Origin: Chloroflexota bacterium
GTDB lineage: Bacteria; Chloroflexota; Dehalococcoidia; Lucifugimonadales; G022566795
Assembly: GCA_022566795.1 (NCBI GenBank)
Contig: JADFIF010000003.1
Coordinates: 1 to 50,130 of the forward strand
DNA: 50,130 bases
Direction: 5' to 3'
Shown here piece after piece: positions 8,329 to 41,611 of this stretch. Each line of letters starts with the position of its first letter. The first letter of the stretch is position 1. Position numbers and translations under genes: made by a program. The notes under the pieces were generated by a model. That model saw only the letters and a list, made by a program, of their open reading frames with translations. It ran no database searches and was not told where the DNA came from.

Positions 8329-9522
8329 CTAAACGTAGAGGTCCATGGGAGCCGAAGCTGTTTGCCATTCGGCGCCGTCTTCGGTGATCAGGAACTGGTC
8401 CTCTATCGACACGAAGATGTCGCCGCCGTCGCTGTAGCAGATGGTCGGTTCGAGCGTAACTATCATGTTGGGCTGAAGCACCGTGTGGTCGTTCAGTGCC
8501 AGGTAAGGCGGCTCGTGAACCACCCGTCCAACCCCGTGACCCGTGTAAGGGACCACCGGAGGGTAGCCCGTCTCCTCGTATAAGCCCAGCTCGACCTGAC
8601 GAATGTGTGACGCCCGTACCCCGGGCTTTAGCTCAAGCATCATGCGCTCGACCAGCCCTCTCTCGAGCGCGTGGGCACGCTCCATGTCCGCACTCACGTC
8701 GCCGAAGGCGACTATGCGGGAGAGGTTACAGATGTAGCCCTGATATTTGCCCTGAGCGTCCACTCGAAGGTATTGCCCACGCTTTAGGGGATTCCCGGTG
8801 GAAGGGGGGCTGCCATTGATGAGATTGACGCCGGCGGGTCCGAAGATCACGTACACCCGCTCGTACTCGAGGCCTTCCGCCATGCATTTTTGGATGAACA
8901 GGCGCTGCACATCCGCCTCGGTCATGCCCTCTTCGGCTGCGTGGACCGTCTGTAGCCAGGCGCTACAGGTACGTACACATGCTTCACTAAGACGGCGTAC
9001 CTCTTCCTCGGACTTGATCATTCGGAGGTCCCATAGCACATCCTCGACATCTACCAGCGTTGCCTTGGACAAGAGCTCCTGGAGTCTACGCGCGTACTTG
9101 ACCCCAAGGTAGCGCTCCTCGATGCCGATGGTTGCCTCGGCAAGCCCTTTCTCACGCAACGCGTTAGCCGCGACCTCCATCGGGTCCCCCGGCTCCGGGC
9201 TGGGGTTCAAAGGGTCGTCCCAGGTCTGAATGTAGTAGCCTGGCCCCCAGAACCTGCGGTCCTGAATCCACGGGTCGAGGAAGCTGACGGTCGTCGCCTC
9301 GCTGGCCCCGGCGACGAGGAAGGGCCCCCGAGACTCCTCGGCGGGAAGTCCCACCAGGGTCTTGTGGGTAACCGTCGTATCCCAGAGCAGGTAGTAGTCG
9401 TCGCTGACGGGGTGCCAGTAGTCGGACAGATACCCCACGGCGTGTTTGGAGGACGCCAGAATGACGTCAATGCCCCGCTCCCTCATGAGCGCGGAGGCTC
9501 GTTCGTAGTCGAAGAGCTGCAT
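8329..9522 (-). CDS. M24 family metallopeptidase (Xaa-Pro peptidase / creatinase-like)
   Basis: 397 aa. It has a creatinase-type N domain (RGIDVILASSKHAVGYLS) and a pita-bread C domain (..DAQGKYQGYICNLSR..GHGVGRVVHEPP..VTLEPTI..). Confidence 0.88.
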   Translation of the reverse strand: MQLFDYERASALMRERGIDVILASSKHAVGYLSDYWHPVSDDYYLLWDTTVTHKTLVGLPAEESRGPFLVAGASEATTVSFLDPWIQDRRFWGPGYYIQTWDDPLNPSPEPGDPMEVAANALREKGLAEATIGIEERYLGVKYARRLQELLSKATLVDVEDVLWDLRMIKSEEEVRRLSEACVRTCSAWLQTVHAAEEGMTEADVQRLFIQKCMAEGLEYERVYVIFGPAGVNLINGSPPSTGNPLKRGQYLRVDAQGKYQGYICNLSRIVAFGDVSADMERAHALERGLVERMMLELKPGVRASHIRQVELGLYEETGYPPVVPYTGHGVGRVVHEPPYLALNDHTVLQPNMIVTLEPTICYSDGGDIFVSIEDQFLITEDGAEWQTASAPMDLYV

Positions 9523-9750
9523 TTTGGGTTCCCTCTTTCTCTACGCGGCTAATCTCCGTCGCGGCCCGCTTCGCCTCTGCCGGCGTGCACTTCGAACACC
9601 AGATGGGACCCCGCCCGTCCGTTCCGGGGTCACGTTCGAGGGCGTTCTCCGCGAGGGCTCAATGCGACTGATTCCAGGGCTTTTCCGCCCTTGCTTCAGC
9701 AACCCTGCTCCCCGCGTTCGTGTGGCGCCGCTTGCTGCCACTCTAGTACC

Positions 9751-9896
9751 TAGAAACTATCTCAAAATTCCGTCTGGGGAGTCCAGAGGGGCTGACCCTC
9801 CGGCAAAGGGTCTGGGGGATGTGGCCCCAGTAGCCAAAGACCCTTGGGGCGGGTGGGTGTGAACATGGCATTTGCCTTTTTGAGATAGTTTCTTAA
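9751..9896. repeat. structured intergenic palindromic element (copy 1, bounded by a 16-bp inverted repeat)
   Basis: AGAAACTATCTCAAAA (9752-9767) is the exact reverse complement of 9878-9893. The interior holds nested stems AAGGGTCT(9806-9813)/AGACCCTT(9838-9845) and CTGGGG/CCCCAG. It also carries the GGTCTGGGGG and GGCGGGTGGG cores shared with 9903-10068 and 34225-34320. Confidence 0.7.
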
Positions 9897-9902
9897 TCAG
9901 CG

Positions 9903-10068
9903 AGAAAGCGATACGTACTTTTCCCCACCCACGCGCCCGTGGGGGTTTAGGGTCTGGGGGACACCCCCAGACCCCCGTCAGTCCCGACGAGTTGGGACTT
10001 GGATCCCCCGGGGAGCCCGAAGGGGCTTGTGCCCCCTCGGAGCCTTTTCGAGGGTAGGTGGGCGGGAT
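9903..10068. repeat. structured intergenic palindromic element (copy 2, inverted relative to the 34225-34320 copy, with a ~70-bp internal insertion)
   Basis: The first ~60 nt (AGAAAGCGATACGTACTTTTCCCCACCCACGCGCCCGTGGGGGTTTAGGGTCTGGGGGACA) and the last ~35 nt match the reverse complement of 34225-34320, with only a few substitutions by eye. It contains a perfect hairpin GGGTCTGGGGG-ACA-CCCCCAGACCC (9950-9974). Confidence 0.75.
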
Positions 10069-10218
10069 GTATCAGGACTTATGCAACAAAGCACCAGTCA
10101 TGAACTTGCCGCAATCAGAACTGGACCGATTGAGCACTGACCGTTCTCATGTCCCGCACTATACCATCATGATTCACGGACCGCTGGCCTCTTAGGGGCA
10201 CGAGACGTCAACGGCCTG

Positions 10219-10262
10219 CCTCGCGTCGTCAAGGGGTTACCCTTCGGGTTGACGACGCGAGG
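10219..10262 (-). terminator. stem-loop after the HExxH-protein gene
   Basis: A perfect 14-bp inverted repeat, CCTCGCGTCGTCAA (10219-10232) and TTGACGACGCGAGG (10249-10262), lies 28 nt beyond the stop at 10290. There is no U tract. Confidence 0.4.
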
Positions 10263-10289
10263 TCGCCGCGACGGTAATGGCTGGGAGCC

Positions 10290-11567
10290 CTAGCTATCGC
10301 CCGGTCGCGCCTTAATTTGCTCTAACTCCCTGATGAACTGGCCGTAGTCGGATACTCCAGCAATGCCGGTGATGAAGTCACCGAGATCTGGGACCAGGGT
10401 GTTGTACTCTTGAAGTTCGTCGCCGATCGGACTTATCGAGGCTGCACTCTCCGCGTATGTGCCGTTGAACGCGAAGAACGCCTGGTTCAACTTCCGTATG
10501 AAGAAGCCGTTCTCCACGAACAGTATCCTTCGCTGCTCCATGTAGGCCTCGGCCTCTTCTATCCTGCCCTCGGCCAGGAGCTCATCAACCCTTAGCCGGG
10601 TCTTACGCATTTCCACTCTGAACTCGAATCCCCCGGCCTCCTCGAGAGTGTGATCCATCTCCGGCGAAGCCTCGACATTTGTCGGCGGCGACTGATCGAT
10701 GGTTCCGCCCAATCTCTGGAAGGCACGGTCGCCTATCTCCCTTCCTGCTATGTCCGCCATCGTTTCGTTGAGGATCCGCATGTTGCGGCTCGCGTGCAGA
10801 TTTTGCCCAAGTGGCTTGAAGAAGAAGTAGTGATGCAGCCACTCGTGTGCCGATGTTTGCAATGTCCAACGCAGAGGACGCGCCCTTGGGACCGATGCCG
10901 GGTAGGTTGCCACGCCTCCGATATTCAGTACCAGCGCGGCTAGGTCGACCTTGTCGAGCAGTTTGGCTTCTACCTCGTCCCGCTCGCTGACCTTGATACG
11001 AGAGTCCAGGAGGACTTCGTGGGTTCGGATAATGGCGTCTCGGGGGGACGTGACCAGGAGCTTCGGAAGATCGGTCAATCGAACGTCGACGGGGGGGAAC
11101 ATGAACTCGCCCCAGGAGGCGAAGCCTTCTTCGACGATGACAGCGCTGATGACAGCTTCAAGCGTTTCTTCGACGTCGTTTCGCAGCTCGTTTCGCCGAG
11201 CCGTCAGCTGTTCCAGCTCAGCCTCCAATTTGCCGACATCGGTGGCCGCGTCGCGAGTTGTGCCGGCCACTACTCCCTCAATCTCGGAACTGATCCTGGA
11301 TGCATCTTCTGCGACCCTGAAGAACTCCTCGATTTGGAGGCGTTTGTCCATCTCGGATCGAGAGTTCCACGGGAGCGCCGTCACGAGACGGTGAATCCAT
11401 TTGCGGGGGAAGTTGGCGAGGTGCCAGGCAACCAGGTCGTGCCGATACGCGGCCGCAGCCTCCTCGGCGGGGTTCAAGCCAAGGGAGTCCCTGCCGAAGG
11501 CCGAAAGCGTGAGCAATGCCAGGCCCAACACAGCCCACTTGAGCACCTTGGCCGGTCTCCGTCTCAC
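10290..11567 (-). CDS. membrane-anchored hypothetical protein with HExxH motif (putative zinc metallopeptidase-like)
   Basis: 425 aa. It has an N-terminal hydrophobic anchor (KWAVLGLALLTLSAF) and a coiled-coil-like acidic stretch (KLEAELEQLTARRNELRNDVEETLEAV). The HEWLHH motif is encoded at ~10830-10847, followed by NETMADIAGRE. The GTG start overlaps the stop of the upstream ORF (GTGA). I recognise no named family. Confidence 0.7.
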   Translation of the reverse strand: MRRRPAKVLKWAVLGLALLTLSAFGRDSLGLNPAEEAAAAYRHDLVAWHLANFPRKWIHRLVTALPWNSRSEMDKRLQIEEFFRVAEDASRISSEIEGVVAGTTRDAATDVGKLEAELEQLTARRNELRNDVEETLEAVISAVIVEEGFASWGEFMFPPVDVRLTDLPKLLVTSPRDAIIRTHEVLLDSRIKVSERDEVEAKLLDKVDLAALVLNIGGVATYPASVPRARPLRWTLQTSAHEWLHHYFFFKPLGQNLHASRNMRILNETMADIAGREIGDRAFQRLGGTIDQSPPTNVEASPEMDHTLEEAGGFEFRVEMRKTRLRVDELLAEGRIEEAEAYMEQRRILFVENGFFIRKLNQAFFAFNGTYAESAASISPIGDELQEYNTLVPDLGDFITGIAGVSDYGQFIRELEQIKARPGDS

Positions 11568-15901: not shown

Positions 15902-16561
15902 ATGGCGCAGGTTCACGATATGTGGGTCACGCCCGGCCCCCAACCAAACGGACTTCAGGCGGCCGACGACGGCCTCTGGGTGATCGACCAGACGGACAAC
16001 CATCTCTACAAGCTGAGCTGGGACGACGGCTCGGTGATCGAGGACCTGCCTACGGGAACGGAGCACTCCAGCGGCGTGACCGAGGGGGGCGGCATGCTGT
16101 GGGTCGCCTCGACCTACAGCTGCGAGCTGTTCAAGCTCAATCGGGACGGCACGACGGCGGAACGCTACGACACCCCCGGCAAGGGCGTCGTCGTCTTCGG
16201 CGATCCCAATCGGAGCCGAGTCACGGGCGCCCACGGGATGGAGTGGGTAGACGACGACAACATGTGGGTGGCCGTCCCGCCGGCCCAGAAGGTCTTTCTT
16301 ATGGACCCGGCGACGATGGAGGTCAAGCGCTCGATCCCCACCCCGGGTACCCGGCCCCACGGGCTCTTCATGCGCGAAGGGGAGATGTGGCTGGGCGACA
16401 CTCAGATGGGCAAGATCCACCGGCTGAACCCGGACGACGGTGACGTGCTGGATGAGATCGACGTTCCGGCGCCCGAGGTACACGGCATGACGCTCCACGA
16501 CGACAACATCTGGTTCTGCTGCGCGGTGACCCGCCGGGTGTGTACGGTACCGCTGCCCTAG
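15902..16561 (+). CDS. five-bladed beta-propeller protein (glutaminyl-cyclase-like / Vgb-like fold), function unknown
   Basis: 219 aa. ATG is preceded by AAGGAGA. Five repeats of about 40 aa each contain a ..(L/M)W(V/L/F).. strand: DGLWVID, GMLWVAS, DNMWVAV, GEMWLGD, DNIWFCC. The family assignment is tentative. Confidence 0.65.
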   Translation: MAQVHDMWVTPGPQPNGLQAADDGLWVIDQTDNHLYKLSWDDGSVIEDLPTGTEHSSGVTEGGGMLWVASTYSCELFKLNRDGTTAERYDTPGKGVVVFGDPNRSRVTGAHGMEWVDDDNMWVAVPPAQKVFLMDPATMEVKRSIPTPGTRPHGLFMREGEMWLGDTQMGKIHRLNPDDGDVLDEIDVPAPEVHGMTLHDDNIWFCCAVTRRVCTVPLP

Positions 16562-16570
16562 CGTTGGGGC

Positions 16571-16753
16571 CATGAGAGCCGGCCGCTTCGCCGAGAAACC
16601 CATCGTACGGCCCACAGGCTGGACTCCGATAATGGCGCAGTGCTGGACGAGGTCCATGTGCCCGAGGCCCCGCTTGACGGCCTAACGTCCCACGATGGGA
16701 CGCTGATACTCTGTAGCGACCCGAGTCGGCAGGTCTGCCGCGTGCTCGCCTAG
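16571..16753 (+). pseudogene. truncated, frameshifted tandem duplicate of the 3' end of the 15902..16561 propeller gene
   Basis: The translation AHRLDSDNGAVLDEVHVPEAPLDGLTSHDGTLILCSDPSRQVCRVLA* (frame of 16640, stop 16751-16753) aligns with the parent C-terminus IHRLNPDDGDVLDEIDVPAPEVHGMTLHDDNIWFCCAVTRRVCTVPLP*. An MRAGRFAEKP.. piece in another frame aligns with the parent MREGEMWLGD. Confidence 0.6.
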
Positions 16754-17193
16754 CCTCTGCGCTCGGCGGTTCACGGCTACGTCTACGCCTTCCGCCGCAA
16801 GGCGGGCTACCCGCATTCGCCGGCACCAACATGGCGAAGTGCTCGGGCGGGAGGCCTCACCACAGCTGTGTCGGACCGTTCAGTGTGAGTCTGGACGGAG
16901 CACCGGTTCCCCTCAGACCGTCCAGGTCATGGAGCAGGCCGAGAACAATATATCGCTCAGGCCCCGGCTGCTCCGCGAAGGTCTTATGGACCTCGAGCCT
17001 TGTAACGCTCATGTAACGCGACTGAGGCTTCATGGTATGGATGGCCGATCACTCCTGTGGTGTGGGGTTCGAGGAGTCGAGGGTTGTGCTGAGCTCGATA
17101 GGGGACTTGCGCGGTTACACGTCAGCGGAAATCGATGTAGAGGCCTCCGCGCGAAGCGGGTCAGCGCCGTCTCCCGGGCCCAGCCGGGATGGG

Positions 17194-33309: not shown

Positions 33310-34092
33310 CTAGCCCATGACCAACCCGCCGTCGACGTTCAGCGCCTGACCCGTGACGTAGTTGGACGCCTGGGATGCCAGAAAGACGACGGCCTCCGCG
33401 ATGTCTTCGGGCTTCGCCATCCGCGCGATGGGCAGGCTCTCTACGCCGTAGTCGAAGCCGCGGGTCATATCCGTGTCGGTGCCCCCGGGGCAGACGGCGT
33501 TACAGTAGATTCCGTAACGGCCGCCATCCTTGGCGACCCAGTTTGTGAAGGCGAGCACGCCGCCCTTGGCGGCGGCATAGGCCGGGCCCGACCGGCCGTG
33601 GAGCGCGTCGGCTCCGTCGGAAGACTTCGACACGGCGCCGCCGATCTTTCCCGACACCGAGGAGATATTGACGATCTTGCCATATCCCCGCTCCTTCATC
33701 GACGGGAACACCGCCTGGGTCATCCGGTACGCGCCCGTCATCACGACGTCTACGTCGCGGTACCAGATCTCCTCGGTGGTCTCCTCGAGTCCGACTCGAC
33801 TCAGCACGCCGGCGTTGTTCACCAGGATGTCGATTTTTCCGAACTCATCGAGGCAACTGTTCACCACCTTAGCGACATCCGCGCTCTTCGTCACGTCGCA
33901 CCCTACCCCCAGGGCGCGGCGTCCACGGTCGCGAACGTCGGATATGGTTTCGTCAACGGAAAGCAGGTCGGCCGCGACCACGTCGGCCCCCTCGCGGGCC
34001 AGCGCGCACGCGATCGCCTGCCCAATACCGCGAGCCGCGCCGGTCACGATCGCCACTCTGCCCGTCAGATCGATTGGGCCGCTCACGGACAT
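33310..34092 (-). CDS. short-chain dehydrogenase/reductase (SDR)
   Basis: ATG 34092 gives MSVSGPIDLTGRVAIVTGAARGIGQAI.. with an NNAG motif and YAAAK (YxxxK). The upstream 183 codons of ORF 33310..34641 are non-protein-like and overlap the divergent gene. Confidence 0.88.
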   Translation of the reverse strand: MSVSGPIDLTGRVAIVTGAARGIGQAIACALAREGADVVAADLLSVDETISDVRDRGRRALGVGCDVTKSADVAKVVNSCLDEFGKIDILVNNAGVLSRVGLEETTEEIWYRDVDVVMTGAYRMTQAVFPSMKERGYGKIVNISSVSGKIGGAVSKSSDGADALHGRSGPAYAAAKGGVLAFTNWVAKDGGRYGIYCNAVCPGGTDTDMTRGFDYGVESLPIARMAKPEDIAEAVVFLASQASNYVTGQALNVDGGLVMG

Positions 34093-34224
34093 GTGCTCGC
34101 TCACCCCGGTCGTCGACACGTAACTCACCTCCGCAACCCATCGATGCCCAGGAGTATATCCCCTCGAGGCCTCCCAGTCGACGGCGGACGGAGCCGAGTG
34201 CTTGGTTGAATAAACCTTGATAGA

Positions 34225-34320
34225 TCCTACCCACCCACCCTCGAAAGGCTCCGAGGGGCTTGTCCCCCAGACCATAAACCTCACGGGCGGGTGGGCGGGG
34301 AAAAGTACGTATCGCTTTCT
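34225..34320. repeat. structured intergenic palindromic element (copy 3, compact form) with G-quadruplex-type arm
   Basis: This 96-bp unit is the reverse complement of the two ends of 9903-10068. Its arms CCCACCCACCC (left) and GGGCGGGTGGG (right) are near-complementary. It lies in the divergent intergenic region between the SDR gene and the ATPase-like gene. Confidence 0.75.
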
Positions 34321-34489
34321 TGCCAACCAAGCACTAGCATATGCTCGCGTTGGCCAATGGAAGCGGCGGACGCGGGCCGGAAAATCCACTCTTCCGCGCC
34401 CGATGCCTTTCGCACGCCAGCCAGGGCAGCTATAGCTACGACGTTCGATGTAGGCTACCATGGTGGCTGGTCCGCGAGAGGGAACAGTA

Positions 34490-35212
34490 ATGTCTGAGCT
34501 TACCCTGGTCGACCTCGTTCGCAACGGCACGATGAACGCCGAGATAGCGGCAACCCTGGCGTCCATCGCGGCCGAGCAGCACTCGTTCATGGTGGTGGCC
34601 GTGCCGCGGTTCGCGGGGAAGAGCACCGTCACGAACGCCATGCTGCATTGCGTGCCGGCGAACGTGCCAGTGCACCGTCTGAGTGGCGACGAGGCGGAGA
34701 TGGACCGGCTGAAGCGCGACGCTGGCGGTGGCTACCTGGTGGTCGGTGAGTTCAGCAGGGCGCCGGTCCCAGGCTACATCTGGGGCCCACCGGTGCGGAA
34801 GGTGTTCGAGACGATGCGGGCGGGCTATTCGCTTTCCACGGCCCTGCACGCGCCCTCGGTGGACGATGCCTACGCCGCCATTTGCCGGACCAACGGCGTT
34901 CCGGATGAGGACGCCTCTCGCCTTACCTACATGGTCTACATCCAACGGATGGGCGACGACGAGGACTCGTTCTGGCGGCGCATCGCCCAGGTCCATGAGG
35001 TAGACAGGGTTGCGGACGGCAGGCCGCAGGGTCGTGTGCTCCATCGCTGGCAGGAGCGGGACGACAGGTTCGAGCAGGTGGAAGAGCCCCGGCTCCTCGC
35101 CGTCGGCGCAGATCGGCTGCGCGAGCGTGCTCGCCGGCTCGCCGAATTGGCATCATCGGGCCGGACCGGCGTGGAGGACGTGCGGTGCGTCGTAGCCGGC
35201 TCCGAGCGCTGA
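34490..35212 (+). CDS. minimal single-domain VirB11/CpaF/PilT-superfamily ATPase-like protein (degenerate Walker A)
   Basis: ATG 34490 follows GAGAGGGA. The translation has LVDLVRNGTMNAEIAATLASIAAEQHSFMVVAVPRFAGKSTVTNAML (P-loop-like AGKST), GYLVVGEF (Walker-B-like) and GYSLSTALHAPS (His-box-like). Length is about 240 aa, with no N-terminal domain. Confidence 0.6.
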   Translation: MSELTLVDLVRNGTMNAEIAATLASIAAEQHSFMVVAVPRFAGKSTVTNAMLHCVPANVPVHRLSGDEAEMDRLKRDAGGGYLVVGEFSRAPVPGYIWGPPVRKVFETMRAGYSLSTALHAPSVDDAYAAICRTNGVPDEDASRLTYMVYIQRMGDDEDSFWRRIAQVHEVDRVADGRPQGRVLHRWQERDDRFEQVEEPRLLAVGADRLRERARRLAELASSGRTGVEDVRCVVAGSER

Positions 35213-41301: not shown

Positions 41302-41480
41302 TTCGTCATGCCTCCTTTCGTTGATTCCTTGGCTCCGCGCGATAGGTGTGTAGCATACCACCAGGGTCTCACTTCTTGGTGCCGGGTGAAGAGCGAGTCG
41401 TCGCGGACCCTGTAACACAAAGAGGGCGGATGCTGCCATTCGCCCTCGAAATCGCTCTTAGCACCGACCTCGAACCCCCG

Positions 41481-41611
41481 GCCTACCCTCGCGGGTCCAG
41501 GGCTGGCCCTGGCGGGTCCGCTTCAACCCGCCGGCGACCTGCCGCGACACTCGCATGGCAAAGGCAAAACCGCGCCCAGCCTACCCTCGCGGGTCCAGGG
41601 CTGGCCCTGGC
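41481..41611. repeat. two perfect 33-bp direct repeats, each containing a hairpin
   Basis: GCCTACCCTCGCGGGTCCAGGGCTGGCCCTGGC occurs at 41481-41513 and again at 41579-41611. Each copy contains the palindrome CCAGGG-CTGG-CCCTGG. The second copy abuts the stop codon of the NHL gene at 41611-41613. Confidence 0.8.

Follow-up and report, generated by a model that had tools for sequence, protein, structure and literature searches.

In the window, that is, the whole 50,130-nt stretch of DNA analysed here, two minus-strand genes (8329-9522 and 10290-11546) enclose a gap of 767 nt (9523-10289), which had been put at 750 bp in the original prediction. The gene at 8329-9522 encodes an M24 Xaa-Pro peptidase that is 66% identical to its counterpart in Candidatus Lucifugimonas marina, a SAR202 bacterium, and the homologues of the flanking proteins are labelled Chloroflexota or Dehalococcoidia. 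The gene content of the window is that of ordinary metabolism and is rich in oxidoreductases. No transposase was found among the 20 window ORFs scanned, the ORFs across the element region gave no match in Pfam, and exact-protein look-ups with three flanking proteins returned no match. Three ENA metagenome scaffolds and one contig (L076; contigs are referred to by L numbers) of the WGS project SMUX01 contain the same locus, elements included, with an identity of 99.3-99.6%. An apparent indel in L002 proved to be a scaffold gap, in which Ns at L002:1357-1456 replace window positions 16531-16797, and is no real polymorphism. The tetranucleotide CTAG is about three-fold rarer in the window than expected from base composition (56 observed against 170), and the TA dinucleotide is depleted there as well (1180 observed against 1718 expected). 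Other repeats were also noted. A perfect 14-bp inverted repeat without a T-run, CCTCGCGTCGTCAA-N16-TTGACGACGCGAGG, occurs at 10219-10262, 28 nt beyond the stop codon of the 418-aa gene; it may be a T-less terminator or a further palindromic element. A 37-nt direct repeat (41477-41513 and 41575-41611; 97% identical, 98 nt apart) occupies a gap between convergent genes and is unrelated to the MITE families described below. Paralogous gene blocks at about 25.7-28.6 kb and 42.0-45.1 kb, with 61-75% nucleotide identity and an offset of about 16.5 kb, go back to an old segmental duplication that took in an NHL-repeat gene together with adjacent genes, including a homologue of the DUF1800 gene of L189.

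Three copies of a GC-rich palindromic repeat had been predicted for the window, and nhmmer profiles detect exactly three and none further. For the 767-nt gap, two adjacent elements had been proposed. The alignment of copies places element 1 instead within the left arm of a single element of the element-2 type, which extends from 9743 to 10097 on the plus strand, is bounded by CTAG...CCAG and has ends that match those of seven other copies. Element 1 is preceded by the left terminus of this outer element (9743-9752), and element 2 is followed by its right terminus (10084-10097); both therefore sit inside one element. The outer element begins with CTAGTACCTA (9743-9752), which ends in the TA that would have received element 1 (compare CTAGTGCC-TA-GTCAGC in L099 and CTAGCATT-TA-GTCAGC in L181), and its left arm continues beyond element 1 as ATCAGCGAGAAAGCGATACGTAC (9896-9918), conserved in the third window copy, c3, and in L099, L122, L139 and L181. 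There follow a C-box, CCCCACCCACGCGCCC (9923-9938), which represents the conserved module CCCACCCRCCCGCCC of Chloroflexota copies, and the perfect 11-bp hairpin HP1, GGGTCTGGGGG-ACA-CCCCCAGACCC, which had been predicted for element 2, was located at 9950-9974 by inverted-repeat search and is family-wide. The second hairpin, AGTCCCGAC-GAG-TTGGGACT (9980-9999), is a lineage-specific replacement of the hairpin HP2 described below; it is present in L122, L130, L139 and L164 and truncated in L167. A third, optional hairpin, CCCCCGGGGAGCCCGAAGGGGCTTGTGCCCCCTCGGAGCC (10005-10044), is either there or missing as one block from copy to copy. A G-box, GGGTAGGTGGGCGGG (10052-10066), pairs with the C-box in the predicted fold, and the right arm and terminus, ATGTATCAGGACTTATGCAACAAAGCACCAG (10067-10097), match the ...GCAACCAAGCACTAG of L164, L167, L181 and L130.

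Element 1 itself is an element-1-type MITE of 141 nt at 9753-9893 on the minus strand. The perfect 16-nt inverted repeat by which it had been said to be bounded was recovered as AGAAACTATCTCAAAA/TTTTGAGATAGTTTCT at 9752-9767 and 9878-9893, giving perfect terminal inverted repeats (TIRs) of 15/16 nt with TA at 9751-9752 and 9894-9895. On the minus strand, its inner unit runs in the order C-box, degenerate HP1, HP2 and ACTCCCC. Independent relatives, 84-87% identical to element 1, occur at two loci, L139:1104-1248 and L193:9523-9691 (nhmmer E 2e-44 and 3e-39). These copies carry the terminal repeat NGWAACTRTCTCAAAA, and TA stands on both sides in all three cases (window, L139 and L193). In-silico removal of 9753-9895, comprising element 1 and one TA, rejoined CTAGTACC-TA-ATCAGCGAGAAAGCGATAC, a sequence collinear with the left arms of L099 (CTAGTGCC-TA-GTCAGC...) and L181, both of which are uninterrupted. 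This comparison suggests that the left arm of the element-2 type, as in L099 and L181, corresponds to a paralogous empty site for element 1, which would have inserted into TA with duplication of the TA.

The third copy, c3, is an element-2-type MITE of 143 nt at 34195-34337 on the minus strand (nhmmer E 6e-32), bounded by CGAGTGCTTGGTTG...CAACCAAGCACTAG. Its position in a divergent region had been described correctly: it lies between an SDR gene that starts at 34092 on the minus strand and a 240-aa gene that starts at 34490 on the plus strand. The two ends of element 2 had been reported to reappear there in reverse complement as a unit at 34225-34320. The matches are real (9903-9963 against 34320-34261, 92%, E 5e-16; 10033-10062 against 34258-34230, 93%, E 1e-4), but the true copy is larger than that interval. 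The cores said to be shared were found again, GGTCTGGGGG being exact in three of three copies and GG(C/T)(G/A)GGTGGG present in all three. Folding into long imperfect hairpins was likewise borne out, both for c3 (-30.5 kcal/mol, z -3.5 against shuffles) and for the composite at 9743-10097 (-83.6 kcal/mol, z -5.5 against shuffles, single-strand DNA fold). The difference in length between element 2 and the 34-kb copy had been taken as an insertion or expansion of about 70 bp in element 2. It is explained instead by a deletion in c3, because six of the seven other element-2-type copies keep a complete HP1 and a following hairpin, of the AGTCCCGAC...GTCGGGACT type or a GGGGC...GCCCC variant (truncated in L167). 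By the alignment, c3 is an internal deletion derivative that lost about 69 nt, comprising the 3' arm of HP1, the second hairpin and one half of hairpin three. The complement of its C-box (34285-34300 on the plus strand) is a G-quadruplex motif, GGGCGGGTGGGCGGGG, the sole short-loop motif of this kind in the 50-kb window, and it lies about 190 nt upstream of each divergent gene start. A G-quadruplex was rejected as a consistent property of the copies in the window, where the complete short-loop motif occurs in c3 only. The full four-tract motif is present in many family members outside the window.

Dispersed relatives and element ends

When metagenome contigs were scanned for the HP1 hairpin, at least 120 matches were obtained, many of them at contig ends, and further copies were found at unrelated loci, which bears out the MITE-like repeat that had been suggested. 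Among the matches listed, seven are element-2-type relatives with unrelated flanks (L099, L122, L130, L139, L164, L167 and L181). All seven loci come from SMUX01, the project that also carries the window locus, and the SMUX01 copies presumably belong to the same genome or organism. Across element-2-type copies, nhmmer E values range from 1e-26 to 1e-49. In total, at least nine element-2-type and at least three element-1-type loci were counted, across metagenome contigs and not per genome.

Aligned element-2-type copies start with C-TA-GTGC... and end with ...GCAACCAAGCAC-TA-G, so that the type can be written C-TA-GTGC...GCAC-TA-G, with a size of about 140-210 nt. CTAG or C-TA is found at the left end in eight of eight copies; at the right end TA-G is kept in four of eight and degenerate in the other four. 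The terminal inverted repeat reaches 14 nt in c3, whereas most copies have about 7-8 nt of it (CTAGTGC), beyond which complementarity is imperfect; the long, imperfectly complementary arms enclose GC-rich hairpin modules. Copies of the element-1 type measure about 141-165 nt and have TIRs of 15/16 nt with TA on both sides. The units in the window measure 141, 143 and 212 nt.

Indels of whole hairpins distinguish the copies. L130 is a chimera in which an element-1-like left half is joined to an element-2-like right half at HP1; the two families therefore also recombine at the shared hairpin. The copies in L167 and L181 are placed 30-50 nt upstream of gene starts. Since copies are 79-87% identical, the family is old, and it is probably no longer very active. 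Contigs often end in HP1 (the end of L003 corresponds to window position 9960, and many of L068-L187 end in this way), and the repeat is a systematic breakpoint of metagenome assembly.

The hairpin unit inside the elements

Read on the C-rich strand, the core consists of the C-box CCCACCCRCCCGCCC, a spacer of about 10-15 nt, HP1, CCSG, HP2 and ACTCCCC, where HP2 has the form (G/C)CAGAGGGG-loop-CCCCTCTG(C/G). Further occurrences of this unit were found in Dehalococcoidia/Chloroflexota MAGs and in numerous untyped metagenome contigs, some of which contain two to three copies each. In some copies a different 5' hairpin replaces the C-box, and the contigs that carry units with differing 5' modules range from 49-69% in GC content. 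Species-representative genomes, when scanned with a pattern, gave 64 matches, which were mostly due to chance (Streptomyces, Sphingomonas and others) and also included real relatives in Dehalococcoidia and Chloroflexota MAGs. The plasmid collection gave no match to the canonical unit as query, and viral contigs gave none to the HP1+HP2 pattern. Many of the HP1-pattern matches outside Chloroflexota are a different long palindrome or single hairpins, and these were discarded as unrelated or convergent given the size of the database. The long palindrome, ATGGCGAGCGCGGGAGCGCGAGCCTATAAYGGGGGTCTGGGGGC-loop-GCCCCCAGACCCCCRTTATAGGCTCGCGC..., is very abundant, has only the HP1-like core in common with the unit and lies mostly at contig ends (L070, L080, L085, L090, L094, L098, L105, L113, L121, L123 and others). 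At L008:137-406, a tandem duplication of about 200 bp holds one diverged unit copy per repeat. At L193:9523-9691, L046:226-335 and L033:5190-5273, either the loop of HP1 or the stretch separating HP1 from HP2 contains an inserted module, CCCTTCGAC(N)GCTCAGGRCAGGC, which has the look of one more small repeat nested within these hairpins.

A covariance model, which had been proposed as a check, was built from seven units with the structure given by hand, in place of MAFFT and RNAalifold, by which HP2 was misaligned. The model recovered 33 strong matches. In the resulting alignment, which was fitted to the model and seeded on HP1, so that HP1 is invariant by ascertainment, 95.6% of the cells pair, and HP2 shows compensatory changes. 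Both sides have changed in five of the nine HP2 pairs, the closing pair being GC in 16 units, CG in 10, AU in 3 and UA in 1, and the values observed on this alignment were reached by no shuffle and no slid register. The core hairpins are either under selection to pair or copied as palindromes. As to their role, the most economical guess is that a cruciform or a single-strand hairpin forms when the element transposes or the DNA replicates. A plain TIR transposon would not require compensatory changes in HP2, and these hint at a further constraint.

When genes were called roughly on the basis of GC3, about 42 of 45 units fell between genes. By the same rough calls, sense and antisense placements are about equal in tandem gene contexts (roughly eight each), and convergent contexts outnumber divergent ones by about 9 to 2. 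Such a distribution agrees with a DNA repeat that has been purged from promoters, not with a strand-specific RNA.

Probable mobilisation, alternative readings and significance

We consider it probable that the three copies are old MITEs, DNA transposons that neither code for protein nor move autonomously, and that they fall into two related families of an as yet uncultured Chloroflexota bacterium of the Dehalococcoidia type. In kind they are best read as an ordinary bacterial repeat, yet one undescribed for this group; the literature search found no description of these element sequences. The transposase would be of the IS630/Tc1-mariner type, with its gene elsewhere in the genome; it would bind the terminal inverted repeats, excise the element and paste it into a TA, often within CTAG, with duplication of the TA. 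The composite at 9743-10097 would have arisen when an element-1-type copy entered a TA of an element-2-type copy, within the left arm of the latter. The element-2-type copy at 34 kb has lost about 69 internal nt, and the core unit (C-box, HP1, HP2 and ACTCCCC) is carried by the MITEs.

IS630-family elements insert into TA and duplicate it, a duplication characteristic of IS630/Tc1-mariner transposition, and the transposition chemistry has been described for ISY100 (PMC2170065). An IS630-family IS with HTH and DDE_3 domains lies at L189:15841-17081 in a related 3.99-Mb Chloroflexota genome, with the ends CTAGTGGTCCAAC.../...GTTGAACCACTAG, imperfect terminal repeats of 26 nt and CTAG at both ends. 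It starts with CTAG and GTG, as do the element-2-type ends, with which it has only CTAGTG in common. Fragments of rve and HTH_Tnp_1 transposases lie directly downstream of this IS. Because the elements have TA flanks, because CTAG stands at their ends though it is rare in the window, and because the L189 IS ends in CTAG and GTG, mobilisation in trans was probably by a transposase of the IS630/Tc1-mariner type. The search with element ends through the collected loci gave only further MITE copies and no autonomous IS with matching terminal repeats. Contigs L188-L195, reached through homologues of the M24 peptidase and the 240-aa protein, gave no orthologous empty site; their synteny is not that of the window, with which homology breaks off at 9596 and at 34411/34479, the flanking proteins being 77-95% identical.

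Known MITEs derived from IS630/Tc1-mariner elements include RUP of Streptococcus pneumoniae, the cyanobacterial Nezha-type elements and the eukaryotic Stowaway elements. In general, MITEs measure about 70-300 bp, do not code for proteins and have TIRs of about 15-30 bp. The window copies resemble such MITEs in being small (141-212 nt) and non-coding, in having TIRs with TA on both flanks, in their dispersed intergenic copies and mutual nesting and in folding into long hairpins. They differ in that no partner IS with matching ends was present among the loci searched, in the short terminal repeats of the element-2 type, and in an interior that consists of GC-rich hairpin modules common to other Chloroflexota repeats instead of a deleted transposase gene. 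Correia/NEMIS elements of Neisseria are about 100-160 bp long, have TIRs, a TA duplication and internal deletion variants, occupy promoter and inter-gene sites and possibly form transcribed hairpins. The elements described here are like them in size, in TIRs with TA, in internal deletion variants and in promoter or inter-gene sites, but are unrelated in sequence and host phylum, and nothing here points to promoter, IHF or RNase III functions. In a published list, NEMIS is counted as a MITE (PMC3733652). As far as sequence features go, the element-1 type appears to carry the MITE features tested, and the element-2 type to be weaker in its terminal repeats.

The original prediction had left the choice between a REP/MITE-like family and a small structured RNA, and had set terminators aside. 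Its MITE-like part is upheld by copies at unrelated loci, TIRs and TA flanks, and the dismissal of terminators agrees with the lack of a T-run; the other parts fared less well. HP1 and HP2 could be mobile ssDNA hairpins of a RAYT-like tyrosine transposase, from which larger palindromes were built as in the BIMEs of E. coli. HP1 (25 nt) and HP2 (about 23 nt) fall within the size range of REPs, and the elements, in which hairpin modules of either orientation are joined into mosaics by conserved linkers, recall the short GC-rich palindromic units of REP/BIME systems, which are mosaic and alternate in orientation, are intergenic and biased to gene 3' ends, and have stems maintained by compensatory change (PMC3733652). 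The pairing of HP2 (five of nine pairs), the preference of the units for intergenic regions, especially between convergent genes, and the occurrence of the unit with different 5' modules in many lineages point the same way. However, REPs are defined by a GTAG (or CGTC) tetranucleotide beside the palindrome (PMC3733652), and this is absent beside either stem, HP1 being flanked by TTG/TAG...CCCG and HP2 by CCGG...ACTCCCC. Neither the 20 window ORFs scanned nor the precomputed Pfam annotations of L188-L195 contain a tyrosine transposase, and the window copies have TIRs and TA flanks, which are not products of RAYT-type transposition. A REP/BIME-like origin is thus unlikely. Much the same holds for the idea that the inner unit is an undescribed structured element itself, beyond cargo, either REP-like with its own ssDNA transposase or a DNA or RNA structure captured repeatedly by mobile scaffolds; we doubt it, the points in its favour being the compensatory changes in HP2 and the recurrence of the unit with different 5' modules. 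Such an element would be present in Dehalococcoidia/Chloroflexota, possibly in other lineages too.

A small structured or cis-regulatory RNA family, transcribed from intergenic regions or read through in them, would account for folds far more stable than shuffles, for the HP2 covariation and for the conservation of the unit across many Chloroflexota. We regard it as distinctly improbable, since Rfam gave no match at the gathering threshold (the best permissive scores were 16-21 bits against the 38-90 needed), orientation towards genes is unbiased, elements 1 and 2 being opposed within one gap, and no neighbouring gene family is consistent. Single unrelated contigs hold two to three copies, whole hairpins are gained or lost among copies, no promoter or terminator consensus lies inside the elements, and the covariation comes from an alignment fitted to the model structure and seeded on HP1. 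Factor-independent terminators or mRNA-stabilising 3' hairpins are suggested by the GC-rich perfect hairpins and by the many units between convergent genes, but they are very unlikely here: no stem is followed by a T-run, a terminator scan found no site in 9450-10350 or 34000-34550, c3 lies between divergent gene starts, the L167 and L181 copies precede gene starts, and both orientations occur. Local duplication or chance similarity of GC-rich sequence has next to no probability. With one mismatch allowed, the 10-mer GGTCTGGGGG indeed shows no enrichment in the window (11 occurrences, 7.5 expected), whereas full-length matches with E values of 1e-16 to 1e-49 occur at at least nine unrelated loci, and these independent copies, with conserved ends and module order, refute that explanation.

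As TA-duplicating MITEs, the elements indicate past activity of TA-targeting cut-and-paste elements in the lineage, and the nested insertion and the deletion derivative provide datable insertion markers. The repeats break metagenome assemblies of genomes of the Dehalococcoidia/SAR202 type, whose contigs end at HP1, spawn spurious ORF calls and mark synteny breakpoints; a profile of the elements would aid the assembly and annotation of a very abundant, uncultured group. Because of its covariation, the family-wide hairpin unit also offers a modest lead to a possible REP-like system of Chloroflexota. The main value of the finding is practical, for the assembly and annotation of Dehalococcoidia-type genomes, with the secondary lead that the hairpin unit may be independent.
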